Below, piece after piece: positions 3,943 through 62,959 of a stretch of 64,000 bases of DNA. A model generated the notes under the pieces. The model searched no databases. It had not been told where the DNA came from and was given only the letters and a program-made list of their open reading frames with translations. Source of the DNA: a virus. The stretch spans positions 32,001-96,000 of IMG/VR virus record IMGVR_UViG_3300014152_000001; one strand, given 5' to 3'. Both the position numbers and the translations under genes were made by a program. Each line of letters starts with the position of its first letter. The first letter of the stretch is position 1.

Positions 3943-4332
3943 GTGTCAGCACAAAAGAGATACTACCAAAATCACAAAACCGCAATGCTACAGAAGAGTA
4001 AAGACTACTATTGGAGCCACAAACCAAAAATACAAAGGGAACAAAAAGAGTATCGGGAGCAAGTTCGTATACAAGTTTTTACTCATTATGGCGGCAATCC
4101 ACCCAAATGCGCTTGTTGTGGGGAGAGCAGAATCGAGTTTCTCACTATAGACCACATCAACAACGATGGTGCAAATCAACGGAGACGTATATGGGGCCAG
4201 AAAGTATCTGGTTTTGGATTCTATGCGTGGTTAGTTAGAATGAACTTTCCTGAAGGCTATCAAGTTTTATGTTTCAACTGCAACTGTGGCAGAGCACATA
4301 CTTTAAATAAGGTATGCCCTCATAAACAGTAG
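3943..4332 (+). CDS. HNH endonuclease
   Basis: CACCGE...TIDHINNDG...YQVLCFNCN. Confidence 0.8.
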   Translation: MSAQKRYYQNHKTAMLQKSKDYYWSHKPKIQREQKEYREQVRIQVFTHYGGNPPKCACCGESRIEFLTIDHINNDGANQRRRIWGQKVSGFGFYAWLVRMNFPEGYQVLCFNCNCGRAHTLNKVCPHKQ

Positions 4333-4333
4333 A

Positions 4334-4399
4334 ATGGTCACGCGAGAACAGGTTCCTATCGTCAATACAGGAGCATTATTCTATCCCGGAGTAGGTTGA
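4334..4399 (+). pseudogene. Orphan recoded copy of the major capsid protein N-terminus (21 aa mini-ORF)
   Basis: MVTREQVPIVNTGALFYPGVG* versus MCP MAMTREQFPIVNTGALFYPAL. Confidence 0.85.
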
Positions 4400-4866
4400 G
4401 ATTTACGCTTTCGTAAGGCTTCTTTCTTGAATTGACAATTCATACATAACACTTGGTATCCTTCTGGGTATCCTCTAACAAAGAGCCACCAATAGATGTT
4501 AATACCACCCCAATTCTTGGTCTTAGCCACTAATCTTCGCTCCTTTGCTCCATCATCATTGATATGGTCTATCGTAAGACAATCTACATCTGTAAACGGT
4601 TCTTTGTGCATTCCAAAAGGATTGGCACATTGAGACGGGTTAGTGCCAGAGTAATGAATCAACGTCTTAACTTTCATCTGATATTTGGCCTTCTTCCGAT
4701 TTGCGTTATACTTCTTTCTATGTTTTCTATAATATCCTCGTTCTCTATTATTTTTTGCAGACTGTTTTTTGTCGCACTCTTTACAGACCCGACTGTTGAT
4801 TCGCTTATGACATGGATACCAATTTTCATCGGCTAACAATATTCCACAGACACGGCAATTGGTCAT
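4381..4866 (-). CDS. HNH endonuclease with N-terminal zinc finger
   Basis: CRVCG..CKEC N-terminus; CANPF; TIDHINDDG...YQVLCMNCQ. Confidence 0.8.
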   Translation of the reverse strand: MTNCRVCGILLADENWYPCHKRINSRVCKECDKKQSAKNNRERGYYRKHRKKYNANRKKAKYQMKVKTLIHYSGTNPSQCANPFGMHKEPFTDVDCLTIDHINDDGAKERRLVAKTKNWGGINIYWWLFVRGYPEGYQVLCMNCQFKKEALRKRKSQPTPG

Positions 4867-4901
4867 ATATCAAACATATAGCCTCTGCCCTATTTAAGTG
4901 T

Positions 4902-6428: not shown

Positions 6429-6857
6429 ATGGAATACAAAACTTCTGAAGAGAAGAGAGCCTACCAAGCAGACTACGCCAAAACACATAAGGAAGAGAAA
6501 CAGGCTTACGATAGGAAGTATTGGAAAATCCGTTATGCTAAAAATAGCAAGCAATACTTGGAAAACAGAGCGAAAGCGACAAGAGAACGGAAACTACTTG
6601 TCCTAAGTCATTACAGTAGTAATCCGCCCAAGTGTGCTTGTCCACCTTGCGGAGAGACCATTATCGAATTTCTCTCAATAGACCATATTATCCCTATTGG
6701 TAATAAAGCGAGAGACAATCAACTAGGCACGCGACACGGAAGCAATCTCTACGGCTGGCTCATTAGACACAACTTTCCAGAGGGCTTCCAAGTGCTCTGT
6801 ATGAATTGCAACTTCGCCAAAGGACACTACGATAAATGTCCTCACGAGAGACTGTAG
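6429..6857 (+). CDS. HNH endonuclease
   Basis: SIDHII...FQVLCMNCN..CPH. Confidence 0.8.
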   Translation: MEYKTSEEKRAYQADYAKTHKEEKQAYDRKYWKIRYAKNSKQYLENRAKATRERKLLVLSHYSSNPPKCACPPCGETIIEFLSIDHIIPIGNKARDNQLGTRHGSNLYGWLIRHNFPEGFQVLCMNCNFAKGHYDKCPHERL

Positions 6858-6979: not shown

Positions 6980-9325
6980 ATGAGCAGTGATGGTGCTAGA
7001 CGACCTGAAGAGGCTTTCGGCAAGACGACTCCATATGCCACCTGTCCAATCTGCCACGCCTTCATGCTAACTGAAGAGTATGACAAACACATGGCTCAAA
7101 ATCACTCACAAGAACAACGAAACAAATATACCCCAAAAGATGAAGAGAGTGGACCACAGGGCCACTTCTATGGTGATGTCTGGTCGAAGTATGAGGCCAC
7201 ACAAAGTCCGGCTTATCAACTCACCCAAGACGAGTTGGACAAGATTACTAATGAAGCGTGGGAAGGAGAAGGTTGTGAAGATTGTCGAAGCATAATTCAA
7301 AGCACCGAGATGGATAAGAAGGGCAACTATGCCATCTATCCTACATCAAGTCAAGTCGGACACATGAGCGACCTCTTCGGATACCAAACCGAGCCATCCA
7401 TGCCTACCACTGGTTATCTAGACCCAGAAGACCCCAAATGGCAACAGTCGGTTGAGCACATCCAAGAGCGACAGAAGACCCCGAAAGGGGTAGGAACCTT
7501 TGGGCCACAGTCTGGAATGACGAGAGACGAACCCACTCGTGATGAATGGCAAGTGACCAGTTATCTAGACAGCGTTGGTGTGACCTATATCCATAAGATG
7601 AAGTTAGGAGAACTAGACTCTACAACAGAGAAGCCAAAGGTTGAGTATGACCTCTATCTTCCAGACCTAGTTATGGCCATCGAAACCTCACCGGGTTGGC
7701 ATGAGGGTGGGCCACAAGCAGGAAGATTTCCACAAGTAATTGAGAATGACCACTTCAAAAAGAACTTTGCTGAAGAGCATGGAATAGACTTGGTGAGTTT
7801 CGACCCTGCTCAGGGAACGGAAAAGTTTATCAACGAAACCCTAGTGCCCAAGTTGAGGGCTGTGGGTGTGAATGCCTTTGAAGTGCCTACAACAAAGAAC
7901 GAAGAAAAGGAGAGGCTGGTATGGTGTATGGATTGTGGTGGTCTCTTTGATGACAAACCATCTCTGAACACACACTTCCAACAGACTGGACATAGTTCCG
8001 TAGGCGAAGGGACGGTAGAGAAGTATGAAGAGTTTGAGAAGGGCAATCCCTTCAATCAGCAATACATCTACCGAGAAGAAGACACGCTCCCAACATCTTG
8101 GCTTGCTCCGGTCTTCAAGTATGAGGGCTATGGGAAGGGCGAAGAGGAAGGTGGTGGAAGATTCCCAGACCCCGCTAACCATATAATGGGACCGGGAGTT
8201 GAGGTCAAGAAATGTCCTCATGGTAATGGTGTCTTCGCTACTCGTGACTTCAAAGAAGGAGAACTAATTTCAAGTTTCAAATCCCCATTTGTAAAGGAAC
8301 TTCCCGACCCTGCTCGTGGATGGGCCACTCTAAGAGTGGGAGACCTGTGGTGGGAAGAGCCAGCATCAGGAGAAGAGGACGAATGGGCCAACTTCTTAGA
8401 CCATGAGAAGTCGCCTAACTCTGTCTTTGTCAACTTCAACTTTGATGAAGGGACGGGAGACCTTATGACGACCCGACCTATCAAAACAGGAGAGGAAGTC
8501 TACATCGATTACGGTGCATACTCACCAGAGAACATAGGCGATGTCAGCGAAGACTTCGCCCCAGAAGACCTACCCCCAGAAGTTGTTCCTGCGGTCCCAG
8601 AGACGACAACTCTACCACCCACAGAGCCAGAAAAGGACTTAGGACAGGAAACAGCAGGATACGATTGGGATTACAACGTGAAGTATCGAGAAAAGCCTAT
8701 TCTTGAAGAGCAGTCTGGAATCAACCAGAATATTCCGACTGGAATATATTCCAGAGTGGAACCTCTTGCCTTTGACCAGTCCCAAAACGTGCCCAGATAC
8801 CCAGAGCGTGGGAAGGTCAATACCATAGAACAAGAGAGTGGTGGTGAAGAGTTGGCGGCTGATAGTCACCTGTTCCAAGAACAAGAGGAAGGTGGAGTCT
8901 ACCTAGCCTGTCCGAAATGCACTGGCGGTGGCGGCTTCTACAATAGGAGAGGCGATAAATGGATTACCTGCCCAATGTGTGGTGGAACGGGTAGCGGAGA
9001 GAAGCAGTTCGATTGGCCTGAAGACGAGAGAGACACCAAAAACGAGGGACGATGGGACGCACCAACACCAGACAAACAGAATGAAGCCGAGAAGATGGCC
9101 TACTATCAGTTGGCTGACGAAACAGGAGACTACATAATGAAAGCAAGAGAAGACGGCTCTCTCACAACACCAGAAGCCGATGCTCTAATGGCTCTACAAA
9201 CTCAAGCCAAAGAAGCAGTATTAGTAGACAATCTGGAGAAGGCACAAGAAATACTGGCTAAAATGGCAGAACTTGTTACGACTAAACTGGGAGTTCAAGA
9301 CCTAGACGTTGAAGGACAGCAGTGA
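6980..9325 (+). CDS. Multidomain protein: Zn fingers, Vsr/DUF559-like nuclease, SET methyltransferase domain, DnaJ-type Zn finger
   Basis: YDLYLPDLVMAIE..WH (PD-D/ExK); GNGVFATRDFKEGE, NFLDHEKSPN, PIKTGEEVYIDY (SET); CPKCTGGG / CPMCGGTG. Confidence 0.75.
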   Translation: MSSDGARRPEEAFGKTTPYATCPICHAFMLTEEYDKHMAQNHSQEQRNKYTPKDEESGPQGHFYGDVWSKYEATQSPAYQLTQDELDKITNEAWEGEGCEDCRSIIQSTEMDKKGNYAIYPTSSQVGHMSDLFGYQTEPSMPTTGYLDPEDPKWQQSVEHIQERQKTPKGVGTFGPQSGMTRDEPTRDEWQVTSYLDSVGVTYIHKMKLGELDSTTEKPKVEYDLYLPDLVMAIETSPGWHEGGPQAGRFPQVIENDHFKKNFAEEHGIDLVSFDPAQGTEKFINETLVPKLRAVGVNAFEVPTTKNEEKERLVWCMDCGGLFDDKPSLNTHFQQTGHSSVGEGTVEKYEEFEKGNPFNQQYIYREEDTLPTSWLAPVFKYEGYGKGEEEGGGRFPDPANHIMGPGVEVKKCPHGNGVFATRDFKEGELISSFKSPFVKELPDPARGWATLRVGDLWWEEPASGEEDEWANFLDHEKSPNSVFVNFNFDEGTGDLMTTRPIKTGEEVYIDYGAYSPENIGDVSEDFAPEDLPPEVVPAVPETTTLPPTEPEKDLGQETAGYDWDYNVKYREKPILEEQSGINQNIPTGIYSRVEPLAFDQSQNVPRYPERGKVNTIEQESGGEELAADSHLFQEQEEGGVYLACPKCTGGGGFYNRRGDKWITCPMCGGTGSGEKQFDWPEDERDTKNEGRWDAPTPDKQNEAEKMAYYQLADETGDYIMKAREDGSLTTPEADALMALQTQAKEAVLVDNLEKAQEILAKMAELVTTKLGVQDLDVEGQQ

Positions 9326-9488
9326 AATGCCAGCATTTCCGGTTATTGAAAAATCCCTCACAATCGCATGACCCTACCTTGTCAATCTTGTTGTAGAAGA
9401 CATTATGCCAAATGTTTGAGTATCGTTTAGACTTAACTCTGGCGAAGACCAAATCACCATCTTGTAAAATTTCAACTACCTCAGACAT
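9282..9488 (-). CDS. SWIM zinc-finger protein
   Basis: SCDCEGFFNNRKCWH (CxCx(n)CxH). Confidence 0.75.
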   Translation of the reverse strand: MSEVVEILQDGDLVFARVKSKRYSNIWHNVFYNKIDKVGSCDCEGFFNNRKCWHFTAVLQRLGLELPV

Positions 9489-9996
9489 TGTGCCATCTCC
9501 CATAATACTCTTCTAACAATGGTTCAATAACTTCTCTAAGATGTTTATACCATCGCCCAACCTTTGCCTCATAAGCCATTTGACAACTGCCACAACAAGT
9601 TTCCAAGTCATCTGTCTTTCTTGAGCCATTAATTATAGCCCTATACAAATCAGTTCCAACTCTATCTTTAGTTCCACCACCATTCTTGTGATTGATGGTG
9701 AGCACAATAGGATTGGTTTCTCCACAATAAACACAACTCTTTCCAACAATTTCAAGTGCTCTCATCTTCACTTTCCATGTATGTCTATCTTGATATTCGG
9801 GATGGTTCTTGTTGAAGTTCTTCACATAAATCTGTCGTTTAGGCCAATTTCGCTTTGTTCGATTCACAGTATCAACACTGGTGCACATTTTACACTCTTT
9901 ACGATACCAGATTTGACCTTTTACACCAATACCATTAATGTAAAAATCTTCAACATTCTTTGTTCTACCACACTTTGAGCAAACTCTAGAAGTCAT
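9481..9996 (-). CDS. HNH-type endonuclease (divergent)
   Basis: CSKCG..CKMC; CVYCGE..TINHKNGGG..CCGSCQ. Confidence 0.7.
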   Translation of the reverse strand: MTSRVCSKCGRTKNVEDFYINGIGVKGQIWYRKECKMCTSVDTVNRTKRNWPKRQIYVKNFNKNHPEYQDRHTWKVKMRALEIVGKSCVYCGETNPIVLTINHKNGGGTKDRVGTDLYRAIINGSRKTDDLETCCGSCQMAYEAKVGRWYKHLREVIEPLLEEYYGRWHNV

Positions 9997-10065
9997 CTAA
10001 CCATAGGTATAGTATTCACTACTATTTAAGGCTTTTTAGCCTTTTCCTGTAATACTTCGATGTCT

Positions 10066-10332
10066 TCACTTAGTCTCTGTCTTTTCTGGCTCTGGAATTC
10101 CAAGACCTTTTCGCCTCGCCTTCTTTTCCTCTTCGGTTTCAAAGGGCATGATGACTCCTGATTCATAGGTCAGCCCCTCTTCGGCATAACCGGATTCCGA
10201 AGTGACTGGGGTGATTTCGCCAAGTCCACCACCTGACTCTACGGTGATACACTCTGGTCCCATGTGCTTCAGGTCGTCTTCTGTGGTCTTGATAGCCACA
10301 TGATGCGTGAGACAGATTTTCTCTATTCCCAT
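10066..10332 (-). CDS. Hypothetical protein
   Basis: Start re-placed at MGIEKIC downstream of a TATA box. Confidence 0.5.
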   Translation of the reverse strand: MGIEKICLTHHVAIKTTEDDLKHMGPECITVESGGGLGEITPVTSESGYAEEGLTYESGVIMPFETEEEKKARRKGLGIPEPEKTETK

Positions 10333-10530
10333 ACTAGGACTACTTAATGGTATTGCCCTATATAAAGATTCGTTGTCAAGGGTATTCAAATATCCCTGTT
10401 GGTCCCATTCCTTGAGCCGCACACGCGGCTGTAGGAATGAGAGTATGGCAACTGCACCCACAACCGAAGTTCAACCTTGCATGACCGCAAGAGTCACAGA
10501 CCCCGCAACCACACTTAGAACAGAATCCCA

Positions 10531-10833
10531 TCACTTCAACCCCAGATTGCGTTTAATACCCGCGATATAGACATCCAACAGAGAAGAGAAGACATTAGTG
10601 AAGGCATAGACCTCATTAGTGAAGGCATAGACCTCATTCAACTCTTTATGTGACCAGAACTCGCACTCAGATTTATGGGCTATTGGAAAGAGATACCGCA
10701 AAAGAGTGGCGAGGGCTGGCCTTGGAATATACATTGTTTCCGTGTAAGTAGGGAGCATGATTTTGTCCTTCTCAAAGTCTCCTGTCTCAAGGTCTTTGAC
10801 GATTGCATCAATACACTTTTGGCAGAGTTTCAT
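10531..10833 (-). CDS. Hypothetical protein with an internal 7-aa duplication
   Basis: Coupled to the uS2 stop; NEVYAFT twice. Confidence 0.55.
   Translation of the reverse strand: MKLCQKCIDAIVKDLETGDFEKDKIMLPTYTETMYIPRPALATLLRYLFPIAHKSECEFWSHKELNEVYAFTNEVYAFTNVFSSLLDVYIAGIKRNLGLK
10593..10634. repeat. Perfect 21-bp tandem duplication
   Basis: CATTAGTGAAGGCATAGACCT x2. Confidence 0.95.
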
Positions 10834-11519
10834 TTTTCCTCATCCTCTTCCTCCTTCTCCGGCATCTTAGTCTCAAAGTCCTCAATAGTGAGGGGTGTTT
10901 TAGTCATGGCATCAAATATCTCCTCATCTGCCTTTATCTTCTCAGAGTGAAGCAAGATAGACCTAGCCAAGAGATAGAAGACCGTGGCTATGGCCTTTGC
11001 GCCAGTGTTGTTGGCCGGAATGCAGAGGTCCAAATCCTCGAAAGTGGCGTTGGTGTTGCAGATGGCAATAACGGGGATACCAACGCTTCCGGCCTCTTGC
11101 ATGGCCCTTCGGTCTCCTTTTATGGCTTCTCCTATCTTCTTCGGTATGCCATTGGTAGGGTCGGAGACAATCAACACATTTGCATCAATGTAGTATTTCG
11201 ATTGAGAGTTTGTAAGACAACCCGGCATGAAGCGATGAAAGACGGTGGGTATGAGAGTGGCCTTCTCAAATGCCGTAAGAGCGTTCTCAAATCTCGCATC
11301 AGTGGCATAGAGCACAGCACCTTCGGTCTTGACTATGAACTTACCAGCCGTGTCAAGCCGAGTAAGGATGGCGTTCACATCCAAAATGGGATTGCCACTT
11401 GGAGCGATGCTAGAGACATACTGAGCCATGTCTTTAGTAACTGCTCCCTTAATGCCTAAGTGTATACCAGTGGCCTTTAGTGGCTCTTCTGTAAGGGTTT
11501 TAGGTAGGATATGACTCAT
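10830..11519 (-). CDS. rps2: Ribosomal protein uS2 homologue (archaeal type, divergent)
   Basis: GIHLG...TKDM, RFMPGCLTN, LIVSDP, AMQEA..VGIPVIAICNT, DLCIPANN.G.KAIATVFYLLAR, IEDFETK; colinear with archaeal uS2. Confidence 0.9.
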   Translation of the reverse strand: MSHILPKTLTEEPLKATGIHLGIKGAVTKDMAQYVSSIAPSGNPILDVNAILTRLDTAGKFIVKTEGAVLYATDARFENALTAFEKATLIPTVFHRFMPGCLTNSQSKYYIDANVLIVSDPTNGIPKKIGEAIKGDRRAMQEAGSVGIPVIAICNTNATFEDLDLCIPANNTGAKAIATVFYLLARSILLHSEKIKADEEIFDAMTKTPLTIEDFETKMPEKEEEDEEK

Positions 11520-12745
11520 TGTTTGCTTACCCCTACACATCTAACCAACTCGTCCAGTATGGCCTCTACATCGTTGGTGTGAGTCTTAGCACTGCCAGCA
11601 GGTTTCAATCCACCCCCTTCCATGATGGCAGGATTGGCACTTCTGAAGGCCTTGCCAATGTGGATTGTGCTGTCCCTTCCGCCCCTACCAGAGACATGAA
11701 CCCCATACTTAGGAATGGTGTTAATGACGAACCAAGTCTTATGGTTGGTGTTGGTAAACTTACTGCATAGTGCAGAACCCATGTTCCATTTGCTACTGAT
11801 GATGGTCACACCGAAGTCTGGGTAGTCTAGTTGGGTGTAGTTGCCCCGCTTCTCTACATCTCCCTTGTCCTTTCTGTAGTTCACAGTGAGTTCCAGAAGC
11901 ATCTTAGTGTTGGAGTTCTTTGGTGTTGGAGTGGTCGTTGGAAATACAGTCGGCTCCCAGAAGAGGTCGCCCTCAATCTTTTCCTTGTTGACCATCGCAT
12001 AGAAGTCTAGCCAATTAGGAATCTTCTCCATCTCTTTCATGGCTTCATAGCAGATGGGCGGGGCTTTGTTGAATATCATCCTTCGAGGATTGTGAAGCAA
12101 TTGGGCGTAGAATGCAAGAATGCTCCAATCGTAACTACTGTTCAGACTCTTGGAAGCAAGCAATCCCCGCATAGAAGGATGCTTGTTGAGGAGTTCTTGG
12201 AAGAGAGGGCCACCTTCTTTGGTCCCAGTTGCTACATCTCCTTCTAACCCTAGCAAGGCCCACTTCTCCATGTTGACTACCGACCATCCCATCCTCTTGG
12301 CAAATGCGTAAGAGATGCCAGTAGTGCAATTCTCGGTGGATGACTCATAGTAGAAGAAGGGGAGATTGGGGAAAGGAAACTTCCCTTGGAGATTGGCTAA
12401 AGTCTTTGCATACTCTCCATAGGCTTCTGCGGTTTCAACCAAAAGGTCTGGCGGGTGGTTGTCCAAGATGATGACATTGATGCCACTGGCCAAAAATGCT
12501 ACTGCATAGTTCAGCATCTCTTGACCGCTTCCAAGGTCTAGAATGAAGACCGTTGCTGGCTTCAAGTCCATTATGTCTGAGACATTCTTATCCGTCATCC
12601 CGAAGACATCCCAATCTTGCCACATAATAGTGTGGGTAGCCTTGGGAGCATTCAGGGAGATGGCATTATGGATGATGCGACAGGCGCACATCCCATCGGT
12701 ATCTTCATCGCTGAAGATTACGGTATCCTGATTTGCTTTACTCAT
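11516..12745 (-). CDS. DHH/DHHA1 phosphoesterase (RecJ/GAN-like)
   Basis: DEDTDG, ILDLGS, ILDNH, GLEGDV, VSGRG, GGGLKPAG motifs. Confidence 0.8.
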   Translation of the reverse strand: MSKANQDTVIFSDEDTDGMCACRIIHNAISLNAPKATHTIMWQDWDVFGMTDKNVSDIMDLKPATVFILDLGSGQEMLNYAVAFLASGINVIILDNHPPDLLVETAEAYGEYAKTLANLQGKFPFPNLPFFYYESSTENCTTGISYAFAKRMGWSVVNMEKWALLGLEGDVATGTKEGGPLFQELLNKHPSMRGLLASKSLNSSYDWSILAFYAQLLHNPRRMIFNKAPPICYEAMKEMEKIPNWLDFYAMVNKEKIEGDLFWEPTVFPTTTPTPKNSNTKMLLELTVNYRKDKGDVEKRGNYTQLDYPDFGVTIISSKWNMGSALCSKFTNTNHKTWFVINTIPKYGVHVSGRGGRDSTIHIGKAFRSANPAIMEGGGLKPAGSAKTHTNDVEAILDELVRCVGVSKQ

Positions 12746-15776: not shown

Positions 15777-16244
15777 ATGTTCATGGCAGTAGGTTCCGCA
15801 TTCGGCACCACAGAAGCCCCAATGTTTTATCGCGTCTCAACAGACAAGAATCCGGCTCACAAGACCATCCAAATCCAGTCGGATACTGCTGTAGTCTATG
15901 TCTTCTCTACCCTAGAGGACGCACCGTTGGGCGCGGCATATACCCCAGACAACGTGTTCAGCCCTTTCATAGTAACGTGGGACTTCCCACAGTTGCCCTA
16001 TCCAGCCACCATAGAAGTGAACGTCCTAGACGCGGCCAGTCACCAGTCATTAGGAACGACCAACCTACAACTCTTTGGTCTAGATGTCTTCAAGATGAGA
16101 GTGACTTATTCGAGCAACAACCCTGCTTCACACGGTTACATTGACGCTATGATAAACGGGAACCGCCAAACCGTCTTCGGTCAGGACTATATACAACAGG
16201 ACTTCTACAATGACGACTGTTGGACAAGAGGAAGCGATGGGTAA
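15777..16244 (+). CDS. Hypothetical beta-rich protein
   Basis: ORF; its end (TRGSDG) is echoed at the end of the next gene. Confidence 0.55.
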   Translation: MFMAVGSAFGTTEAPMFYRVSTDKNPAHKTIQIQSDTAVVYVFSTLEDAPLGAAYTPDNVFSPFIVTWDFPQLPYPATIEVNVLDAASHQSLGTTNLQLFGLDVFKMRVTYSSNNPASHGYIDAMINGNRQTVFGQDYIQQDFYNDDCWTRGSDG

Positions 16245-16277
16245 AGGCTTATTAGTTACCACTTCCTATTATAGAGT

Positions 16278-16808
16278 ATGACAAAAGGACACGGATGGAA
16301 ATCAAAATATGAAAGAAACTGGTATGCTGAACATAGAGACGAGCAACTTTTGAAAATGAAAGCATGGCGAGAAGAAAATCCAGAGAAGATGAAAGTGGCT
16401 CATCAACGATGGAATGCTACTCATAAAGAACAGAACAAACAAACTCAAAAAGAGTATCGTCAAAAGAACAGAAGTCGTGTTCGCAAGTGGAAAGACGAAT
16501 GGTATCATAACAATCTAAATAAGGGAAGAGAGATGCACCGTAGATATTATTACAAGCGAAAGTATGGTATAACTCCTAATGATTATGAAAGAATGATACA
16601 AGAACGGGAAGGCAAATGCGACCTTTGTGGAAAGCCCATTGAAAGAACTAAATATCAGCCTTGTATAGACCATGACCACGAAACTGGAAAGATAAGGGGT
16701 CTTTTACATACTAATGAAAATAAGGCTCTTGGGTTGTTAGAAGACAACCCAGAACTATTAACTAAAGCATTAGACTACCTAAAGAGGACACGAGGCTCTG
16801 GTAATTAG
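16278..16808 (+). CDS. Endonuclease VII-family nuclease
   Basis: KYGIT...CDLCG...IDHDHETGKIRGLLH..N.ALGLLEDN...ALDYL. Confidence 0.85.
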   Translation: MTKGHGWKSKYERNWYAEHRDEQLLKMKAWREENPEKMKVAHQRWNATHKEQNKQTQKEYRQKNRSRVRKWKDEWYHNNLNKGREMHRRYYYKRKYGITPNDYERMIQEREGKCDLCGKPIERTKYQPCIDHDHETGKIRGLLHTNENKALGLLEDNPELLTKALDYLKRTRGSGN

Positions 16809-22732: not shown

Positions 22733-22733
22733 A

Positions 22734-42191: not shown

Positions 42192-42590
42192 TCATATGAG
42201 TGTCCAGAGAGGGGTATTCCATGTTATTGTATGACCAGTTGGACCGAACTTCTTCTCAAGGTAAAGTTTGGCGTTGCAGATTCGACACGCTATCTCTATG
42301 TCTGAGAGGTCTACTCTGCCTTCTACAATACGAAGGGCCAGATTTCTGTTATGGTCTCCGCCTCTTTCCATGTGAGTAGTATGGAGATGGCTGAACTCTA
42401 GAAAGTCCACAACATTGCATCCGCAATGGACGCACTTCGGAACCTCAGAACCAGTCAACTTGGCCAAGCCGCCTGCCATAACTATTTGCATCGCCTTCAG
42501 TTTGTTCTTTCGATACTTATCACTATTGTAGGTCTTCTCTTCTGGAGTAGAGGGTCGTAAAGCGGCTACTCCCTTCTTTGGTCGTCCCAT
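42192..42590 (-). CDS. HNH-type endonuclease (divergent)
   Basis: CVHCG..LEFSH...IACRICN. Confidence 0.65.
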   Translation of the reverse strand: MGRPKKGVAALRPSTPEEKTYNSDKYRKNKLKAMQIVMAGGLAKLTGSEVPKCVHCGCNVVDFLEFSHLHTTHMERGGDHNRNLALRIVEGRVDLSDIEIACRICNAKLYLEKKFGPTGHTITWNTPLWTLI

Positions 42591-47567: not shown

Positions 47568-47568
47568 A

Positions 47569-49149: not shown

Positions 49150-49255
49150 ATGCAAACCAAGACAGTGAACGGTTGCAAATACTGGTTCGAGTCTCATGTT
49201 CACCATATAACCGAAAAGGGCGAAGAATGCCCCAATTCACAGAGGGATTGAGACA

Positions 49256-54415: not shown

Positions 54416-54969
54416 GCAACACTAGAGAGCAAGACGACTTCATGGCCGCACTTCATGCCCTTATGGATAGTCTGTCCTTAGACGACTTAGAGGAAGACAA
54501 CTGCGATGGATGTGGAGTTGCCACTAGCGACCTTACTGGCCGACATCCCTTTGCCCTCTGCCCCCTTTGCAACTGGAAAGGATATGGTCTCAATGACTAA
54601 GAATTATGGATTTCGGCAAGAACCTTTATATAGGTTGGGGAGAGGGATATAGGATATGGCAACGAACAAAGAACTAGCAGAGCGACTTCGCAAGGCGCGT
54701 GACCCTCTTGGGCCATTTGGCCCTTTCGCCTACTACAAGATAGAAGAGATTGAGGCAGTAGCCAAAGAGTTGGAGAACCGAGCATGACTCCCAAGTTCCC
54801 TATGATAATCGTGGACGCGGCAAAAGGGATTCATGTAGTGAAGAAGACCCCTGCTGGCTATTACACTTGCGACCAGTGCCATAACAGTTTCACCCTAGAG
54901 GAACTAATGAAGGCACACGATTTCGTCAATCCAAATGTTTATAAAGGATGGGGCTTAGGGGTATAGGAT

Positions 54970-55329
54970 ATGAGCAAACTCGGAACCTTCGCGTCCTACC
55001 TTATTTGGACAAGCGTAGTGGGAATCATCGGATGGGGTCTTTCAGCACTGATAAGCCTCAATCCAACGGCTCAAGCAATCAACACTTTCGCTGGCGGCAC
55101 ATGGTTAGGATACGTCTTTCTGGGCATAAACTTTGCTTTCTACCCTCTCCAACTTGGGTTGGGAATCCTTCTGACCGATATCCTTAACATTGGCAACGCT
55201 ACAGGATTCTACATACAGGTGACTATCGCAAGCATAATCCTACTTCTAGTGGGGCTTCTTCTAAGAGTCGAAGACAATGAGAGAGAGAGCAGACCACTCG
55301 GAATGAAGTGGAAAAGATGGTATACATAG
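54970..55329 (+). CDS. Membrane protein (about 3 TM)
   Basis: Hydrophobic segments; own TATA. Confidence 0.65.
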   Translation: MSKLGTFASYLIWTSVVGIIGWGLSALISLNPTAQAINTFAGGTWLGYVFLGINFAFYPLQLGLGILLTDILNIGNATGFYIQVTIASIILLLVGLLLRVEDNERESRPLGMKWKRWYT

Positions 55330-55518
55330 CCACCTACAAGACGAAGGATGGAATCAGTCCAGAGATACTAGGAGAGCGATTCTACAACGGAGAACTATGC
55401 TCTAATTGTGACGATGGTTGTCTCAAGGCCAAGCGTTGTGATGGGTGTGATGAAGTGCTTTGCGTCAAGTGTTGGGAAGAGCATCAGAACGATGCTCCAT
55501 GCCATGTGGGAAGATAAC

Positions 55519-55695
55519 ATGACAGGTCTATATTGTGTGACCTATCTCATTGGCGAAGCACAGAGGCCAGAGACTCAGATGAAGATAAGCGAGATGTTTC
55601 CACCCGATAGTTCGAAAGAGGCAATTGCCTTAGTCAAGACCAAACACCCCACCGACTTGGTGAGGATAACAAGTGTGGCGATGCTAAAGAAATGA
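55519..55695 (+). CDS. Small hypothetical protein whose 3' end is duplicated at 55976
   Basis: EAIALVKTKHPTDLVRITSVAMLKK. Confidence 0.6.
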   Translation: MTGLYCVTYLIGEAQRPETQMKISEMFPPDSSKEAIALVKTKHPTDLVRITSVAMLKK

Positions 55696-55991
55696 TGTCC
55701 GAGAGGGAACTCAAAGCGGAAGTAATCAGGGAGACAGTAGACGAGTGGGTTAGACTGTCAGACCCTGAGCGAGTGGAGGAGAAGGTTCACAAGTGGGTAG
55801 GTAAGGTGGGGAAGCCTACCGTCTTCCTGAAGCCGAAGTCAGCGACTATCGAGAATCTGACGACAGGAGCCATGTTCCTAGTCGTGGACAACAAGGGATG
55901 GACGCACACCTTCTACACCTATGTAGACTCGATTTCCAGATGTGAACGAACAGACATCTCACACAAAGTCAAGAAGAGGCCATTGCCTTAG
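55692..55991 (+). CDS. Hypothetical protein between diverged direct repeats
   Basis: ATGA-coupled; flanked by repeats 55618-55695 and 55976-56050. Confidence 0.6.
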   Translation: MMSERELKAEVIRETVDEWVRLSDPERVEEKVHKWVGKVGKPTVFLKPKSATIENLTTGAMFLVVDNKGWTHTFYTYVDSISRCERTDISHKVKKRPLP

Positions 55992-57051
55992 TCAAAGCCA
56001 AACACCCCACAGACTTGGGGAAAATAACATCGGTGGCTATGCTCAGATGAAACGCTTTCAGATAGGATACGAGTGCGGTTGTTGGTTTGCATTCGATGTG
56101 GCAGACCCCATGCACTGGAAGATACTAGACTTCGTGATATGCACTGACCACGTTAAGAGGAGCCATCTCCAATGAAGACCAGAGAAGCAGTTGAACAACT
56201 TGAGAGGGAGAAAAAGATATGAGAGTCTGGATTCGAGAGGGCTACGGCAACCACGACCTCATCGCTCTCGACATTGAGATAGGTAGTGGAAGCGACAGTC
56301 GGTTCCTTTCCCAAGTCGGTCTTCTAATCCATGCGTCAGGACATAAGTGTGACCACACACCACCCCATGACCCATCATGAGCGAGACATCCGATTCCAAA
56401 CATCTGAGAGCATGGTGTCCCAAACACCGGAAGCGGTGTTGCATGATTCACGGAAAACACAAGAGAGGACGCTAAATGCCTAGTGTTAGTGTAGAATACT
56501 GGCTCAACGGTAGAAGGGAGCCACCCATAAGCGTAGGGGTCGCTGATGAGTTTGAGGCCATCGCAAGAAGACTAGGGCAAAACGTAGAGAGAACGCCCCT
56601 ATGTTTGAAGATAGTCATGGGAAGTGGGAGACGCTATTGACCTGCCCTAAGTGCGGCAAAGAAATGATGCTATACCAATGTGGTTATATGCACTGCATCA
56701 ATCTAGATTGCGACTACGATGGGAGCAATAGACTATGACCTGTCCTAAGTGCGGCTATCCTTACGTCTACGAGAGGCGTGTTGCTTGTGGATTGAAAGAG
56801 GACATAGCAGTTATGTGTCCTAATTGTGGGTATCAATCATGATAATCAAAAAGTGTAAGGATTGCGGAGCCATCATAGAAACAAAGGAAGGGGCGATAGG
56901 AGAGAGAATCGTGTGGAGTCTATGCGACAGATGTAGAGCCAAACGGAATGGTTTTATAGGGGCAAAGACTTTGAGAGAGGTAGGAATAGCATGAGCAAGG
57001 GATACGACAGAGATGATTGTGGGATGATTTGTTGCCCACCGCATTGCAACT

Positions 57052-57612
57052 GTGGCGATTGTGTGGGGTGTGCTTCTGACTTTTAAGAGGACGGACCATT
57101 TCAGTTGCGGCCACTCTTATGTTGTTCAATCCGATTATAGACTTCAACTTGAGAAGTGTCCTGAGTGTCTTAGTGGAGACTATGATGGGTCACTGGTCGA
57201 GTCAGATGAGAAAGAAGAACTAGGGGCTAGGATAGTTCAAGAGCCTAACTCTTTCGTTGAAAGGATTGACAGCAGTGGATTCTATGGGGCATCCGTCTTT
57301 CTACCAAGTGCGACAGTCGCCACTGGCGTTTGGAATAACATTTGGGGAGCCTCTTCATCTGCAAACATATCACCACAACCTTACATTGAACGGCACTTTC
57401 CACCACAGACAGTAAGCAATGGACAGACATTCACAATACCAGACAATGAACTAGAGGATTGGGCAAGAGAGGAACCCAGACGACTAGAACTAAATTGGAA
57501 CGGCCATCATACCGAAGCCGAGTATAACGCTTGTGAGTCCTGTCAGCATGAACTGAGAGTCGGGATGGCAAGAGACTACAACGAGCAACATGGGATTGAG
57601 ACTGAGCTTTGA
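57052..57612 (+). CDS. Hypothetical protein with Cys motifs
   Basis: ORF. Confidence 0.5.
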   Translation: MAIVWGVLLTFKRTDHFSCGHSYVVQSDYRLQLEKCPECLSGDYDGSLVESDEKEELGARIVQEPNSFVERIDSSGFYGASVFLPSATVATGVWNNIWGASSSANISPQPYIERHFPPQTVSNGQTFTIPDNELEDWAREEPRRLELNWNGHHTEAEYNACESCQHELRVGMARDYNEQHGIETEL

Positions 57613-57650
57613 CCGCAATGCTTATAAACCCTACAAACGTAGGGGTGTCC

Positions 57651-57758
57651 ATGTCGCAAGAAGATAACGAACTCGAAGAGGATGAGGACATGGATTCGGA
57701 CTTCGATGGAGAAAGTGAGGACATCGGACAAGATAACAAAACGGATGAGGAATTATAA
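57651..57758 (+). CDS. 35 aa hyper-acidic peptide
   Basis: 18 of 35 residues are D/E; own CTTATAAA promoter; TAATG-coupled to the HNH gene. Confidence 0.6.
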   Translation: MSQEDNELEEDEDMDSDFDGESEDIGQDNKTDEEL

Positions 57759-58240
57759 TGCCTAGTGAATACAAGTATCGCTGTTGCATCCGTTGTGGCG
57801 TTAAACTAACGCCAAGCACTTGGTTTCCTAGTTTCAAACCTAGATACCTATATGTTTGCAAATCTTGTTCCAGTAAAGAGCGTGTAGTATACTATAGAAA
57901 GTGGGCCACTACACACAAATCTATAGCAAAAGAACGAACCAAAAAAACTAGAGATACTCTCAAACTTGAGACATTGCTCAACTATTCGCTAACTTGGCCA
58001 CCGCAATGTGCCAATCCATTCAGAGAGCATCCAGTTTGTGTGCCATACACAACCATTGAGGCTCTTTCCATTGACCATATCAATGGTGGTGGAGATAGAG
58101 AAAGAAGACTGTTGGTTGGGAGAAGAGGGGGCGGAGTCAATTTCTATTGGAAATTGAAACAACGTGGGTATCCAAAGGGATACCAAATCTTATGTATGAA
58201 TTGTCAATTCATCAAAAGTTATAGGGTGAACGGCTCTTGA
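57758..58240 (+). CDS. HNH endonuclease with N-terminal Zn finger
   Basis: CIRCG..CKSC; CANPF; SIDHINGGG...YQILCMNCQ. Confidence 0.8.
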   Translation: MPSEYKYRCCIRCGVKLTPSTWFPSFKPRYLYVCKSCSSKERVVYYRKWATTHKSIAKERTKKTRDTLKLETLLNYSLTWPPQCANPFREHPVCVPYTTIEALSIDHINGGGDRERRLLVGRRGGGVNFYWKLKQRGYPKGYQILCMNCQFIKSYRVNGS

Positions 58241-58369
58241 TTGAAGTCAAATGGAGATGCACGAGTTGTGGCATCATCATCATAGAGAAGACCAGAGACG
58301 CAGATGAAGAGACTAAGAAGCATCTGCTCGTCTGTGAAGGACAAGGATTTCACCTAGAATCGTGAGACT

Positions 58370-58930
58370 ATGGTTAGCGAATATGACGTAATCTTCCACA
58401 CCATTACACCTGAGATGAGGCTAGAGGCCAGACCATTAGCCAGCCGACTGGCCGAACTTAACCATCACCAACCCATAGCCGAAGACACTCCACTAGGCGC
58501 GGCTATGTCTCAGATAGATATGGCTAAGTATCTAGGCGCAGTCCACGTTGATGTTCCAGACTACGATATGACTCTAGGCAAAGGCACTATCGACAACAAG
58601 AACATCACCACCACAGTTGGCCGAGTCCTTCCTCACTATGATGCCCAAGTCTTCAGTTATAACCCTGACCAGAAGTGCGAGTTCTACACCTTTAGCAGAG
58701 TGCGGAAGTTAGTGCCACAAGAAGAGTTGGTCGGCATCTTCCTCATAGGTTGGATTTCCAAGGCCGACTTCCAGACCCTAAGGCATCACTACAACGAAGG
58801 AGAAGTGCGGAATGATAACACTCACTACAAGTATACTTGTAAAGGCGGGACTGATGTAGTGCTAGTTCAAGTCCTTCACCCGTTGATTGAGTTGAAGAGA
58901 ACACTTATTAACACGGAAGGACAGGGGTAA
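58370..58930 (+). CDS. Phage protein, possible PD-(D/E)xK fold
   Basis: DYD...IDNK, YTFSRV, LIGWISK..F. Confidence 0.45.
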   Translation: MVSEYDVIFHTITPEMRLEARPLASRLAELNHHQPIAEDTPLGAAMSQIDMAKYLGAVHVDVPDYDMTLGKGTIDNKNITTTVGRVLPHYDAQVFSYNPDQKCEFYTFSRVRKLVPQEELVGIFLIGWISKADFQTLRHHYNEGEVRNDNTHYKYTCKGGTDVVLVQVLHPLIELKRTLINTEGQG

Positions 58931-58934
58931 GGAT

Positions 58935-60963
58935 ATGAGCAAACTCTTCGGGTTGATAGGGCTTGGCTTCTTGGCCCTCGTTGGAGCATTCGACTGGTGG
59001 GTATGGTTCAACCTTCTTACTTCTGGATTTGTCGAATGCTCTGGACATATGGGCGCACTCATAGGTTTCACTCTTTTAGCGATTATCTCTATTCCAGCGA
59101 CCATCTTTGGCTTCATAACTGGTCTGTCGATTATGGTGGCTGACTAATGCCAGAAGACCATCCAGACGAAGGATACTCGGACATCCTAAAGGAACTAGAC
59201 AAAGAAGAGAAGGACAGGAAACTCCGTATGAAGATAAGAAGGGGTGAAGACTTAGGGCCGGCCATGTGTGTGACTCCCTTCGCTGTCGCTCCTACACAAG
59301 AGGAAGACATTGCAGAAGACAAAGCGTTCCAAGAGTTCATGAAGGGATACACTAGAGACGTTCACATGATGGCAAAGGTCTTGTCGGCATTAGCCAAAGC
59401 GATGGACAAATATCCTCACCTAAGACTAGGGCAGTTGCTCTATGTCGTCATACAGAACCTAGACTCGAAGAATGGGAAGATAGGAGACGAGTTGTCTTAC
59501 ATGAGGAACTTCCATCTGAGGCTCTTCAACATCTATGACGAAGAAGTCATAAGGGCGATTGAAGCGTTTGACTGAACACTGCAAGTGGTGTGCAAACGAC
59601 ATCGTGAAAGAGGACAATAGCCTAGAGGTAAGAGAGTTCCACACTAGCGGTAAGACTTGCTACTACTTCTGTGACTACGATTGTCTGGTGTTCTGGGCAA
59701 AAGCCAATTGCAAAACAAACATCATTGGTGTGTTGAATGAGTCATGAACCGTCACATCTCAATCTCTCTACCAGTATCTACGTTGATGGTAGACTCGCGG
59801 CAGAAGTCACCAAAGAAGACAAGCCCCTCTTCATTGAAGCCTACACCAAACTCTTTCCCACGGCCACCATTGAGGCATTTACCGTGCTACAATTGGTTAA
59901 GAGAAAGAAGGCCGAAAGGGAAGCACAGGAAGCCACACAAGAAGGAGTGGACGTAGAATGATTGGAAGATGCGACTGTTGCGATTTGGAAGGGTGCGTAT
60001 GCGAAGATTGTCTCTATTGTGGTGGAGAAGAGGAAGAAGTGATTGTCACCAATACCGCAGAAGGTAGAGATGAACGTTGGGAAGCAGAGAACAAGGCCAT
60101 AAAAGAGAGGAACTTCTCTAAATGAAAACCAGTAGAGTGAAGAAACTCAAAGGCCGGATAGAGTTCGGTTGTGAATCTGGAGAATATCCTTTTTCAAGAG
60201 AACAGATGGAGAAATTGGCCAAGGACTTCGTAGGCAAGTCCGTTACCATCTATACCAAAGACGACTTCAAGGGAGAGAGAAAGGTAGTGGGCAAGGTCAT
60301 TGAAGCCCATGTTGTCGGAGTATCTTGGCTCCAAGACCATATAGACTATGAGGTCGAGGTAGCATGAGAACCTCTACCAAGTTTTTGGTAGTCGCAATAG
60401 TAATGGGTCTTCTTGACATCCTTTCAAATTCCCCTCTCCTTCTTATAGTGTCAACCGTAATGCTCTATGGGTTTTTCTACTACAGCGGCAAAGAGGTAAC
60501 AAAGAAAGAGGTAACGGATACCATTGACAAGACCCTGTTGCAGATGAACAGCAACTTGAAGTGCGACCTCTGCGACCAGACTCTACACCTGACAGAACTG
60601 GAAGGGAAGTGGGCGTGTGACAGTTGCATCATAAAGAATTGGGCGAAGCACTGTCCAGTGTGTGGAAAGGATATGCCACTCGCTGACACCAAAATGAGGG
60701 TAGACCACATAGCCGAGCATGAGAGAAGGGGAGAACTATAAGTGAGAGAGACCAACATAGAGTATAGTTGTAAGAAATGTGGCAAACAATTCAGACTATT
60801 CTCTGACGATGGTATGGGAGACCAGACAATCTGTTGGAACTACTGTCCTCATTGTGGGGCAAGGAACGACATTTGGATACGATTCCTCAACGAGAAACAG
60901 TTGAAAGATGTGCCTCTAGGCATTAGCCCTCTCCCGTCAGGAACCAAGAAGGGGCAACTATAG
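58935..60963 (+). CDS. Run of small hypothetical, membrane and Zn-finger genes (58935, 59147, 59737, 60122, 60364, 60742)
   Basis: Overlapping stop/start coupling; CxxC pairs; TM segments. Confidence 0.5.
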
Positions 60964-61880
60964 GCATGAATCCTTATAAGCCTCGCAAGCAAGAAGTAAA
61001 CTATGGACAGTCTCGGTATATGGTGGGGCTTCAAGTGGAAGATAGCGGTGGCCGCAATTCTCATCCTTCTAATCATAGCCATACTTCCTCTCTTCTCATG
61101 GTGAAATAGACATGAGCGAACTTCAAAGATACACAATACTGATTTTTCTGATGCTACTCGCCATAGCCGTCATCATTGTGGTGGGGAACATCTACTCTTG
61201 AGCCTAGCCAAGTTCGATATGACATCGCCCAAGCCTAAGCCAGTAGAAGAGAAGATGGTTGAAGTCCGATGCTCTATATGCACCAAGAGGTTCATGACCC
61301 CAGAGTGGACTCTTGAGACAGGAGAGCCACAAGTCTGCTCTAAGAAGTGTGCATGGGAGATGGGACATTGACATACTCCTACCACTTGTATATTCTACCG
61401 AAGAAGACCGAATCTGAGTCTGCCAAAGAGGAACCAAAAGAACCTATAGAAGACTTATTAAGGGCACTACAAAAGGGTAATGGGCATGAGTAATAGCAAA
61501 GCACGAAGCATGAGTGAGGATGATTGGGACTTGATGGAATATCTCTGGCGTTTGGGGCTTCAAAACCCCGTAGCGTTATGGAAATGGTGGGACTATGGAA
61601 GTGGACAGTAAGGCTCTCCAAGCTAGAGACGCGGAGACTAAAGAGGCCGAGCCAGAGCCAGTCACACAATCTGTCTATGAGATAGAACTGACTAAGATAG
61701 ATGAAGAATACAATCGGAACCCAAGCCCGAAACTTCTGAAACAAAGATTCGACCTTCTGGTAAAGTTGATGCGGAAATGACTTTAGCCAATGTTGACAAA
61801 CTGGCCGCGGCCAAAAAGAACTATGTTGTTCTTGAACCCTCAATCATGAAATACATCAATAAGGTTCCACGCTTGCCGAG

Positions 61881-62387
61881 TTGGATAGTAGTATCTTGAT
61901 AATCTGTCATGTAGATGGACTGTGCGAACCTAATCGGTATGGAGGGGTTGCCACCTATGGAGTGGTTATCCGAAAGGAAGACGGAGAACTCGTCTTCATG
62001 GGTAGTGGAATGATAGGAGAGGGCAAAGGTATGTCCAATCAGGTCGCGGAATACTATGCTGTAATAGGTGCGCTCAAGAGTTTGATTGACCACTATCTGG
62101 CCAATGAAGAGGTCATAATCTACACCGACTCCAAACTGGTAGCGGAGCAGATGAATGGCCATTGGAAGGCCGTAAGCGGAGTCTACTTGCCCTACTTCCT
62201 TAAGACCAGAGACTATCAAACCCAGTTCAGCAATCTGAAATTCCAATGGATAAGCCGAAACCTTAATAAAGAAGCAGATTCTCTTACTAGGCAAGTATAT
62301 GAAGAGTATTGCAAAGCAACTGGAAGACCTGTCATATATGGAGAGCATGAAAAAATGCCGAGATTGTGGAACAGAACTCACAAATGA
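61881..62387 (+). CDS. rnhA: Ribonuclease HI
   Basis: HVDG, SNQVAEYYA, YTDSKLV..QMNG.W, WISRNLNKEAD. Confidence 0.9.
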   Translation: MDSSILIICHVDGLCEPNRYGGVATYGVVIRKEDGELVFMGSGMIGEGKGMSNQVAEYYAVIGALKSLIDHYLANEEVIIYTDSKLVAEQMNGHWKAVSGVYLPYFLKTRDYQTQFSNLKFQWISRNLNKEADSLTRQVYEEYCKATGRPVIYGEHEKMPRLWNRTHK

Positions 62388-62850
62388 AAATTGGTCTTTC
62401 TCTCGACAAAGGAATAAATCTTTCTATTGTCGAAACTGTTGCAAAGTTCGCCAACATCAATGGCGCATCAAAAACACTACTCACGAAAGAGAATACGGAA
62501 AGAAATGGAGAGCAACACATAAGCAACAGAGAAGAGATTATGCTAAAACCATTGGACAAGAGAATAAATTGGAAGTTCTTCGCCATTACTCTGGCAATGT
62601 CGTCATCCCATTTTGTGCTTGTTGCAAAGAGAATCGGATTGAGTTCCTCACACTTGACCATATCAAAGATAACGGCTATCAAGAGACTGTTTCCCATCGA
62701 AAGACTCTCTATTTTTACCTCATTAAACAAGCCTTTCCAGAGGGCTATCAAGTTCTTTGTTGGAATTGCAATGAAGCAAAGGCGCACTACGGATACTGCC
62801 CACACCAAACACATAAATATACCCAGAGGCGAGAACTCCGAGGCAGATAG
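62347..62850 (+). CDS. HNH endonuclease with N-terminal Zn finger
   Basis: MKKCRDCG..CRNC; TLDHIKDNG...YQVLCWNCN..CPH. Confidence 0.8.
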   Translation: MKKCRDCGTELTNENWSFSRQRNKSFYCRNCCKVRQHQWRIKNTTHEREYGKKWRATHKQQRRDYAKTIGQENKLEVLRHYSGNVVIPFCACCKENRIEFLTLDHIKDNGYQETVSHRKTLYFYLIKQAFPEGYQVLCWNCNEAKAHYGYCPHQTHKYTQRRELRGR

Positions 62851-62959
62851 AATGTCTCGCATGGCTTATGAAACGTGGATGTTGGCCAATGGTCGCAAGC
62901 CTCTGTATGGGAAACGACAGAATGTTTATAAAGGTCGCAAACAGAGGGGTGTGCTATGA
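62819..62959 (+). pseudogene. Displaced second copy of the RNase HI C-terminus
   Basis: IPRGENSEADRMSRMAYETWMLANGRKPLYG aligns with ISRNLNKEADSLTRQVYEEYCKATGRPVIYG. Confidence 0.85.

Follow-up and report, generated by a model that had tools for sequence, protein, structure and literature searches.

Putative homing endonuclease genes lodged in gene ends beside diverged copies of those ends in a virus assigned to a wetland archaeon

Homing endonucleases usually spare their hosts by lying between genes or within self-splicing introns or inteins. A different arrangement is known from fungal mitochondria, where mobile open reading frame (mORF) 'gene hybrids' have been described in atp6 of Allomyces macrogynus and in atp6, atp9, cox2 and nad3 of Glomus sp., with 64-81% identity between the inserted and the native C-terminus, the latter matching relatives (PMC3630166). 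Here we describe a comparable layout in a 64,000-nucleotide (nt) stretch of viral DNA (the window), bases 32001-96000 of the 105,748-bp IMG/VR record IMGVR_UViG_3300014152_000001, which has direct terminal repeats. In both settings an endonuclease open reading frame (ORF) lies near a gene end, a diverged foreign terminus is joined in phase to the gene, and the native terminus follows downstream and matches element-free relatives; some inserts lack their own stop and run in phase into native sequence. The fungal cases differ in being mitochondrial and in encoding LAGLIDADG or GIY-YIG nucleases, whereas those described here belong to a predicted archaeal virus and carry predicted nucleases of HNH and Endonuclease VII (Endo VII) type. 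Moreover, PMC3630166 covers carboxy-terminal cases only, whereas two of the present cases concern 5' ends and some of the duplicates span about 3-9 codons. Keyword searches of the literature, the broader part of which was only partly screened by title and abstract, found this layout described for fungal mitochondria and not for phages or archaeal viruses.

The arrangement of these loci makes it probable that they are independent selfish elements, namely free-standing homing endonuclease genes within the terminal codons of a host gene, each accompanied by a diverged copy of that gene's end. Three such cassettes are clear, at the 3' end of an RNase HI gene, at the 3' end of the gene starting at position 15777 (the 15777 gene) and at the 5' end of a SWIM-like gene, and a fourth, minimal one lies at a mini-ORF. 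In the 3' type the order is supplied end, nuclease gene, stranded original end; in the 5' type it is stranded original start, nuclease gene, supplied start. The substitute end is in frame, and the layout therefore implies that the host gene would be whole without splicing. Relative to uninterrupted relatives, the nuclease genes are inserted after FQW (RNase HI), 7 codons before the stop (15777 gene), after ...LQE/D (SWIM-like gene) and after nt 10 (mini-ORF). The supplied copy is far more diverged than the stranded copy, which matches element-free relatives, and the presence of the elements varies patchily from one related virus to another. An initial annotation of the sequence had proposed that such an architecture occurs at both 3' and 5' ends, and comparison with relatives bears this out at the three loci and the minimal fourth.

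Duplicated gene ends at three nuclease loci

A scan of IMG/VR with the capsid protein returned 25 related loci, including the complete genomes G001 and G002 (the present virus is G000). The closer relative G006 (91 kb) was found by a scan with the 15777 gene, and a metagenome scan with the same gene yielded G006 and G002 again, together with a new nuclease-free allele on a short metagenome contig, L062; a profile search with this gene in IMG/VR returned only G001, G002 and G006. The comparison set thus consists of four sequences, the three genomes and L062. A megablast of 20 kb against a phage collection gave no match. When the RNase HI region was searched as DNA in the relatives, the matches were short and weak only, so protein-level synteny was used. 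The synteny tables revealed long collinear stretches, with amino acid (aa) identities to the window of 60-90% for G006 and 40-70% for G001 and G002, and provided uninterrupted alleles for most nuclease genes of the window. Empty alleles, which the initial annotation had expected an alignment of related genomes to reveal, were found for the RNase HI, 15777, SWIM and mini-ORF sites. Duplicates inside the window were sought by comparing it with itself in six frames and by a flank test against shuffled sequences, the latter being blind to duplicates shorter than about 10 codons; among terminal duplicates, those of RNase HI, a 58-aa gene and the capsid N-terminus stood out. The coordinates of all features are collected in Table 1.

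Table 1 Features of the cassettes and related loci (positions refer to the window)
Locus	Feature	Position	Strand	Remarks
RNase HI	RNase HI gene, resident part to ...FQW	61881..62249	+	Pfam RVT_3 E 1.9e-17, RNase_H E 2.1e-8
RNase HI	Supplied 3' end (ISRNLNKEAD...)	62250..62387	+	In frame, completes the working gene
RNase HI	HNH-type endonuclease gene	62299..62850	+	Member of the 9-member family; probable start ATG 62347 by family alignment
RNase HI	Stranded original 3' end (IPRGENSEAD...)	62819..62959	+	Stop overlaps ATG of next gene (62956)
15777 gene	Resident body to ...W	15777..16223	+	Orthologues: G006 77% aa, L062 68%, G001 54%, G002 41%
15777 gene	Supplied end TRGSDG and stop	16224..16244	+	Same end in nuclease-bearing G006 (19/21 nt)
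15777 gene	Endonuclease VII-type gene	16278..16808	+	PF02945 E 1.1e-19; PHROG endonuclease VII E 4e-29
15777 gene	Stranded original end TRGSGN and stop	16788..16808	+	Fused in frame to the nuclease ORF, provides its stop
SWIM-like gene	Remnant of original 5' end (...SEDIEVLQE, 5 junk codons, stop)	10026..10103	-	Begins at TTG in the 3' end of upstream gene 10066-10461
SWIM-like gene	HNH-type endonuclease gene	9481..9996	-	Family alignment; stop codon inside new start of SWIM-like gene
SWIM-like gene	Supplied 5' end MSEVVEILQD of SWIM-like gene 9282-9503	9459..9488	-	Read on as MSEVVEILQD/GDLVF
Mini-ORF	Original mini-ORF start (ATGATAACAA)	3886..3895	+	Overlaps stop of gene 3428-3889; identical to first 10 nt in G006 and G001
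Mini-ORF	HNH-type endonuclease gene behind the mini-ORF start	3943..4332	+	PHROG HNH E 3.4e-5
Mini-ORF	Mini-ORF (MVTREQVPIVNTGALFYPGVG and stop) with new start behind HNH, 21 codons	4334..4399	+	Resident gene
58-aa gene	3' end of working gene 55519-55695, more diverged copy	55609..55695	+	78% nt, 74% aa to G006 over 27 codons
58-aa gene	99-aa ORF between copies	55692..55991	+	Conserved neighbour gene, no recognisable nuclease
58-aa gene	Stranded copy of 3' end	55967..56050	+	94% nt, 93% aa to G006; stop overlaps next ATG (56047)
HNH 42192	HNH-like gene with diverged direct repeats (42135-42165, 42635-42665)	42192..42590	-	Family alignment

At the RNase HI gene, the self-comparison paired 62220-62357 with 62789-62926 over 46 aa (score 75, z=9.6 in the shuffle test). 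The resident part is 83% identical to G006 in nt and 87% in aa over 114 codons; directly after FQWI the identity falls abruptly, to 48% nt and 48% aa over 33 codons of the supplied end. The stranded end, at 80% nt and 79% aa over 33 codons, equals the level of the resident part and retains the IPRxEN motif of all three relatives. Because it matches G006 far better than the supplied end does, we take the stranded copy to be the original end of the gene. The upstream copy forms a complete ORF with a stop, in which the catalytic Asp motif is kept. The insert, comprising the working end and the HNH gene, measures 569 bp (62250-62818), and the uninterrupted G006 sequence is rebuilt at neither junction. 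The core of the HNH protein stops at ...CPHQ, as in its paralogues, and the ORF continues for ~12 further codons within the stranded end; some 41 nt of the supplied end are also read by the HNH gene in a different frame. Both the duplicate and an HNH gene had been noted here in the initial annotation, which placed the latter at 62366-62959; that interval is another frame whose tail is the stranded end, and the HNH gene itself occupies 62299-62850. No HNH orthologue adjoins RNase HI in G001, G002 or G006, and a search of IMG/VR with HNH 62299 gave paralogue-level matches only, in viruses lacking a match to the RNase HI or 15777 query.

Behind the stranded RNase HI end follows an accessory block of ~3 kb, absent from G001, G002 and G006, that starts with a metallophosphoesterase gene and continues with an ORF from 63801. 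This block is a difference between the genomes separate from the cassette. For the metallophosphoesterase, no relatives were found in IMG/VR, and the only match in the protein database was the protein itself.

At the 15777 gene, the 33-nt spacer provides the Endo VII-type gene with a TATA-like box, but the nuclease gene lacks a stop codon of its own. An orthologue (66-68% aa) occupies the same site in G006 and is not there in G001 or L062. The gene ends track this distribution: in the nuclease-bearing G000 and G006 the gene ends TRGSDG and the nuclease tail reads TRGSGN, each followed by a stop, whereas in the nuclease-free G001 and L062 the gene itself ends TRGSGN and stop. A chance match of six residues and a stop at exactly that site is negligible. 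Taken alone, the duplicate is not significant in the shuffle test (p ~0.6), and the support comes from the relatives. As protein, the stranded end matches the nuclease-free alleles in 7/7 codons and the supplied end in 5/7.

The two nuclease-bearing viruses also differ from each other at this locus. Their stranded ends encode the same peptide, yet all seven codons differ (12/21 nt identical), that of the window being closer to L062 (17/21 nt) and that of G006 to G001 (18/21 nt), whereas their supplied ends are identical at 19/21 nt. Across the left junction runs a tract of 88-97% nt identity (window 16090-16460, G006 81130-81520) in surroundings of 50-75%. The differing stranded ends and the high-identity tract, small samples both, suggest that the cassette has been exchanged between diverged backgrounds. 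The tract spans the 15777 gene end plus the first half of the nuclease gene but does not include the nuclease domain.

Which of the two copies the empty alleles match had been singled out beforehand as a decisive point of the initial proposal. They match the displaced copy, both at RNase HI and at the 15777 gene, and the same holds for the 58-aa gene (55519).

The SWIM-like gene carries the 5' type on the minus strand. Its product has a CxCx10CxH motif, and the Pfam SWIM match (E 0.062) is below the cutoff. Where the window has the remnant, the uninterrupted genes of G006 and G002 read ...LLDRIEVLQE/GDLIF and ...PEVDILQD/GDLVF, respectively (the slash marks the insertion point), and in both genomes the gene starts within the last codons of the upstream gene and lies directly behind it. 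G001 has an orthologous HNH gene (50% aa over 176 aa) at the same site and in the same layout, with the remnant NEVEVLQD; the HNH gene is not found at this site in G006 or G002. Since G006 is closer to the window than is G001, the element is patchily distributed. Compared with G006, the remnant is identical at 6/9 aa and the supplied start at 3/9, a weak difference. As at the 15777 gene, the duplicate alone falls short of significance (p ~0.08 in the shuffle test) and is supported by the relatives.

The nuclease genes of the window comprise an HNH-type family of 130-180 aa, two Endo VII-type genes, one LAGLIDADG ORF and one Vsr-like ORF, the last of which is retained in all relatives. Both Endo VII-type products match the Endonuclease VII domain PF02945 (E 1.1e-19 for 16278-16808 and E 1.9e-18 for 41544-42104). 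A 9-member alignment of the HNH family shows an invariant (I)DH His, a Gly and three Cys, including the CxxC of ...LCxNCN; the DH-motif His, a downstream Asn and the zinc Cys pairs expected of an HNH nuclease are all present. One family member matches the PHROG HNH endonuclease (E 3.4e-5), and a profile of the family has a weak match to PacI in the PDB (E 0.16). The initial annotation had treated the loci as a single system of the virus, a view that gives way to one of independent elements drawing on at least two nuclease families.

A minimal 5' layout and a duplication without a nuclease

At the mini-ORF, HNH 3943-4332 sits after nt 10 of the ORF, which is restarted behind it by a new ATG and two codons. 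The mini-ORF resembles the N-terminus of the capsid protein: between the latter and 4337-4393, 15/16 aa are identical, 10 of them through different codons. It also occurs behind the orthologue of gene 3428-3889 in G006 (69469-69528), G001 (54503) and G002 (82824, minus strand), and all three lack HNH 3943 at this site. The mini-ORF is therefore a resident mini-gene; the proposal that this HNH gene brought along an orphan, recoded capsid 5' end was not borne out, and the idea of an HNH gene carrying a captured capsid fragment was rejected on the same ground. In G006 and G001 an ATGA overlap couples the mini-ORF to the upstream gene. The layout at HNH 3943 is a minimal form of the 5' type. A second HNH gene lies on the other side of the mini-ORF, at 4381-4866 on the minus strand.

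Mimics of the capsid N-terminus (...TREQVPIVNTGALFYP...), 19-30 codons long, were observed at the same place in four diverged genomes, with codons mostly unlike those of the capsid gene. The mini-ORF looks like a selected micro-gene rather than debris.

Another duplicate of the self-comparison belongs to the 58-aa gene, in which 55609-55689 and 55967-56047 share 78% aa and 78% nt identity over 27 aa (z=15). The 99-aa ORF between the copies has orthologues that follow the 58-aa gene in G006 (17494-17694) and G001 (1973-2260; 82% over 55 aa) and, since they adjoin the same gene in two relatives, it is no obvious mobile insert. It has no Pfam, PHROG or NCBIfam match, and its Atlas model is of low confidence (predicted local distance difference test, pLDDT, 0.43), which makes structural matches meaningless. 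Of the cassette annotated here, the duplicate is real, but the insert is a conserved neighbour gene without a nuclease signature. We read this locus as a probable recombination scar, similar in general kind, and do not count it among the nuclease cassettes.

These comparisons also bear on the description of the duplicates as conserved in protein and recoded in DNA. It holds only in part: the RNase HI copies share 42% aa identity, and those of the 58-aa gene are still 78% identical in nt. The 'recoded' look is divergence between lineages rather than demonstrated design.

Origin of the duplicated ends

The cassettes could have arisen as follows. A nuclease-bearing and a nuclease-free virus would co-infect one cell, and the nuclease would cut the nuclease-free genome within the gene end. 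The gene-side end of the break would then invade the homologous gene in the nuclease-bearing genome and copy its gene end together with the nuclease gene. The other side of the break, lacking homology, would be joined non-homologously, so that the part of the gene beyond the cut stays in place. Later spread would proceed by ordinary homing, with the gene body and the stranded end as arms. Only diverged supplied ends should persist, because with an identical end the junction would again contain the recognition site and be recut; persistence of diverged ends alone would give rise to a 'recoded' look without design. The first steps have a precedent in phage T4, in which one-sided homing with illegitimate double-strand-break repair has been shown experimentally (PMC2988022). 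Entry with homology on one side and junctions at microhomologies are common to that process and to the origin proposed here; it differs in being a laboratory intron system, and natural gene-end duplicates are not described there.

Several observations weigh against this account. Three of the duplications are very small (~3, 7 and 9 codons), and it is synteny with the four other sequences alone that makes them significant. The HNH family has no Pfam match, and an AlphaFold2 model of it (pLDDT 84) recovered HNH domains only at Foldseek E >1 and Z ~3, with nothing at E <=0.001 in Foldseek and Z <=3.5 throughout in VIA-align. The SWIM cassettes of G000 and G001 are no more similar to each other than are their flanks, and at this locus recent homing and an old insertion with later loss are equally likely. 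A search for the donor of the supplied RNase HI end in a set of 5.8 billion proteins returned only the protein itself. Across the contigs of four wetland metagenome runs, compared over 44001-64000, no nuclease-free variant and no joint skipping an insert was seen, although rare variants could be missed. Lastly, the same layout occurs without a recognisable nuclease at the 58-aa gene, so that illegitimate recombination between relatives can make such duplicates alone.

This last point leads to the alternative that fares best, though we regard it as unlikely: the duplicates would be scars of illegitimate recombination between diverged co-infecting relatives, with the nucleases occupying the same variable spots as neither cause nor dependent. 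It would account for the layout around the conserved non-nuclease gene at the 58-aa locus, for the 3-kb accessory block that follows the stranded RNase HI end and is absent from all relatives, and for the several nuclease genes of the window that are clean intergenic insertions without duplicates. At four loci, however, the nuclease ORF lies exactly against the duplicate and is linked with it: the stranded end lends its stop to two nuclease ORFs, and another nuclease ORF ends inside the supplied start. Supplied end and nuclease also occur together: G000 and G006 have both, and G001 and L062 have neither.

Local tandem duplication of a gene end, followed by insertion of a nuclease gene between the copies and fast evolution of the working copy, is improbable. 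The ~41 nt of the supplied RNase HI end that are dual-coding with the HNH gene could speed up change, but most of this end is not dual-coding, and its identity of 48%, against 80-83% for body and stranded end, is reached by a drop at one codon. Such a duplication also sits poorly with the 15777 gene, at which G000 and G006 share a supplied end before two different stranded ends.

Splicing is less probable still. The inserts would then be group I or II introns, archaeal bulge-helix-bulge introns or inteins, removed such that the downstream copy is used, and deletion of 62250-62818 does join the RNase HI body in frame with the stranded end. Against this, the upstream copies read as complete ORFs that end in stops, and each nuclease ORF possesses a start of its own; the RNase HI nuclease cannot be an intein because it is out of frame with the host gene. 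A scan of the window against Rfam at the gathering threshold matched no family, and no intron family was detected at E <=10 for the RNase HI, 15777 and SWIM loci or at E <=1 in 41000-45000. Bulge-helix-bulge candidates (0, 0 and 2, with 0.7, 0.5 and 1.5 expected) were not above chance.

A misjoining of reads from co-occurring strains is the least probable of all: the record is a metagenome assembly and its stranded 58-aa-gene end is 94% identical to G006, but near-identical contigs, present in four wetland metagenome runs and assembled separately, span the junctions at >=99% identity, and G006 and G001 independently show the same architecture. A transposon with target-site duplication was also considered and rejected, the repeats being ~10 to ~140 nt long and 45-78% identical, with one copy tracking the relatives and the other not.

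Other nuclease genes and wider implications

Endonuclease-like loci number 20 in the whole record, as against 11, 9 and 3 in three relatives. By comparison with relatives, HNH 3005-3415, HNH 6429-6857 and ORF 34721-35173 are clean intergenic insertions without a duplicated gene end, the two HNH genes having their own TATA-like boxes. Because several nuclease genes are inserted cleanly between genes, the end-replacement design is not universal in this genome. ORF 34721-35173 and its paralogue 32953-33321, both on the minus strand, are 56% identical in aa; the longer one has the N-terminal zinc ribbon of the HNH family and a Cys-less ...LHH...H tail. G001 and G002 lack it at the corresponding site, whereas it is found elsewhere in G001 and G006, and it is therefore mobile. 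In G001, an HNH gene at 2555-3026 (L033) has no in-frame start before codon ~85, and may be a decaying copy or be joined by a frameshift to the preceding ORF.

Four nuclease genes belonging to three families lie in a row on the minus strand at 41544-44116 (Endo VII, HNH-like, LAGLIDADG and HNH), without a counterpart in the relatives. Among them, HNH 42192 is flanked by a repeat with 24/31 nt identical, whose DNA score is 19, the highest value among 500 shuffles being 14; in four genomes, no further occurrence of the 31-mer was found. The flanks proposed for this gene thus form a significant repeat (0/500 shuffles as high); a possible identity for the feature split by the nuclease is the 3' end of an ORF of 40-43 aa at 42624-42755. 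Between the LAGLIDADG gene and HNH 42192, four or five copies of a promoter-like (C)TTTATATAGGCAACC in both orientations lie within 180 nt of non-coding sequence (42750-42930). At the other end of the row, a nucleotidyltransferase ORF (41290-41835, plus strand) and the Endo VII-type ORF (41544-42104, minus strand) converge and overlap by ~290 nt, each being antisense to the other beyond its domain. The nucleotidyltransferase gene is found in none of the relatives, and the Endo VII-type gene has probably been inserted into it and truncated it.

The 106-kb virus is assigned to a wetland archaeon on the basis of predicted archaeal-type genes. One is a ribosomal protein uS2 of archaeal/eukaryotic type, encoded at 10830-11540 on the minus strand and kept in all three relatives; its match to uS2_euk_arch (TIGR01012), with an E of 1.3e-38, does not reach the curated cutoff. 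Archaeal affinity is also indicated by a weak match to RecJ_archaeal and by one to a family of Cys-rich peptides from methanogens, and TTTATATA-like boxes lie ~25 nt upstream of many start codons. The window has a GC content of ~46%, and a transfer RNA scan of it found no genes.

Among phages, free-standing homing endonucleases are represented by the seg and mob genes of T-even phages (PMC2988022) and by F-CphI of cyanophage S-PM2, which has an Endo VII motif (PMC6083498). They stand alone, are equipped with expression signals of their own, cut a conserved gene next to them in genomes without the nuclease and spread through repair accompanied by co-conversion. HNH 3005-3415 and 6429-6857 fit this type, in which the nuclease genes lie between genes; the cassettes differ from it in lying inside a reading frame with a replacement end. 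Nuclease cassettes within phage genes are known too: the MobA element of T4-like phages combines mobA with the gene 60 bypass cassette (bioRxiv 10.1101/2022.08.31.505936), and mobE lies inside the 'genes-in-pieces' nrdA of phage Aeh1. In outline these share with the present cassettes that gene function is kept without RNA or protein splicing, but they do so by means of two polypeptides or ribosomal bypassing, whereas the genes here would remain in one piece through the substitute end.

In synthetic cleave-and-rescue (ClvR) drives, an engineered Cas9 cuts the wild-type allele and is linked to a recoded, uncuttable, full rescue gene. The cassettes share this logic of nuclease plus rescue, although only the gene end is replaced here and the function is predicted from the layout. 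Seen as a drive, the nuclease would break a useful gene of competitors during co-infection, and recovery would come only with the nuclease and its uncuttable substitute end. Tentatively, and with the odds against it, end replacement could be a general and hitherto undescribed form of intragenic homing among archaeal and bacterial viruses, a natural cleave-and-rescue drive in which divergence of the supplied end is selected, not incidental, and both starts and ends of genes can be targeted.

The boundary of each duplication is a candidate cleavage or insertion site, which would make these uncharacterised HNH and Endo VII nucleases directly testable. The cassettes would also account for short orphan gene fragments and odd C-terminal tails of nucleases that annotation pipelines misread. 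In an archaeal virus, they would represent a third way in which a homing endonuclease gene spares its host, by replacing the end of the gene that it enters, and a natural analogue of engineered cleave-and-rescue drives; the design may be widespread.

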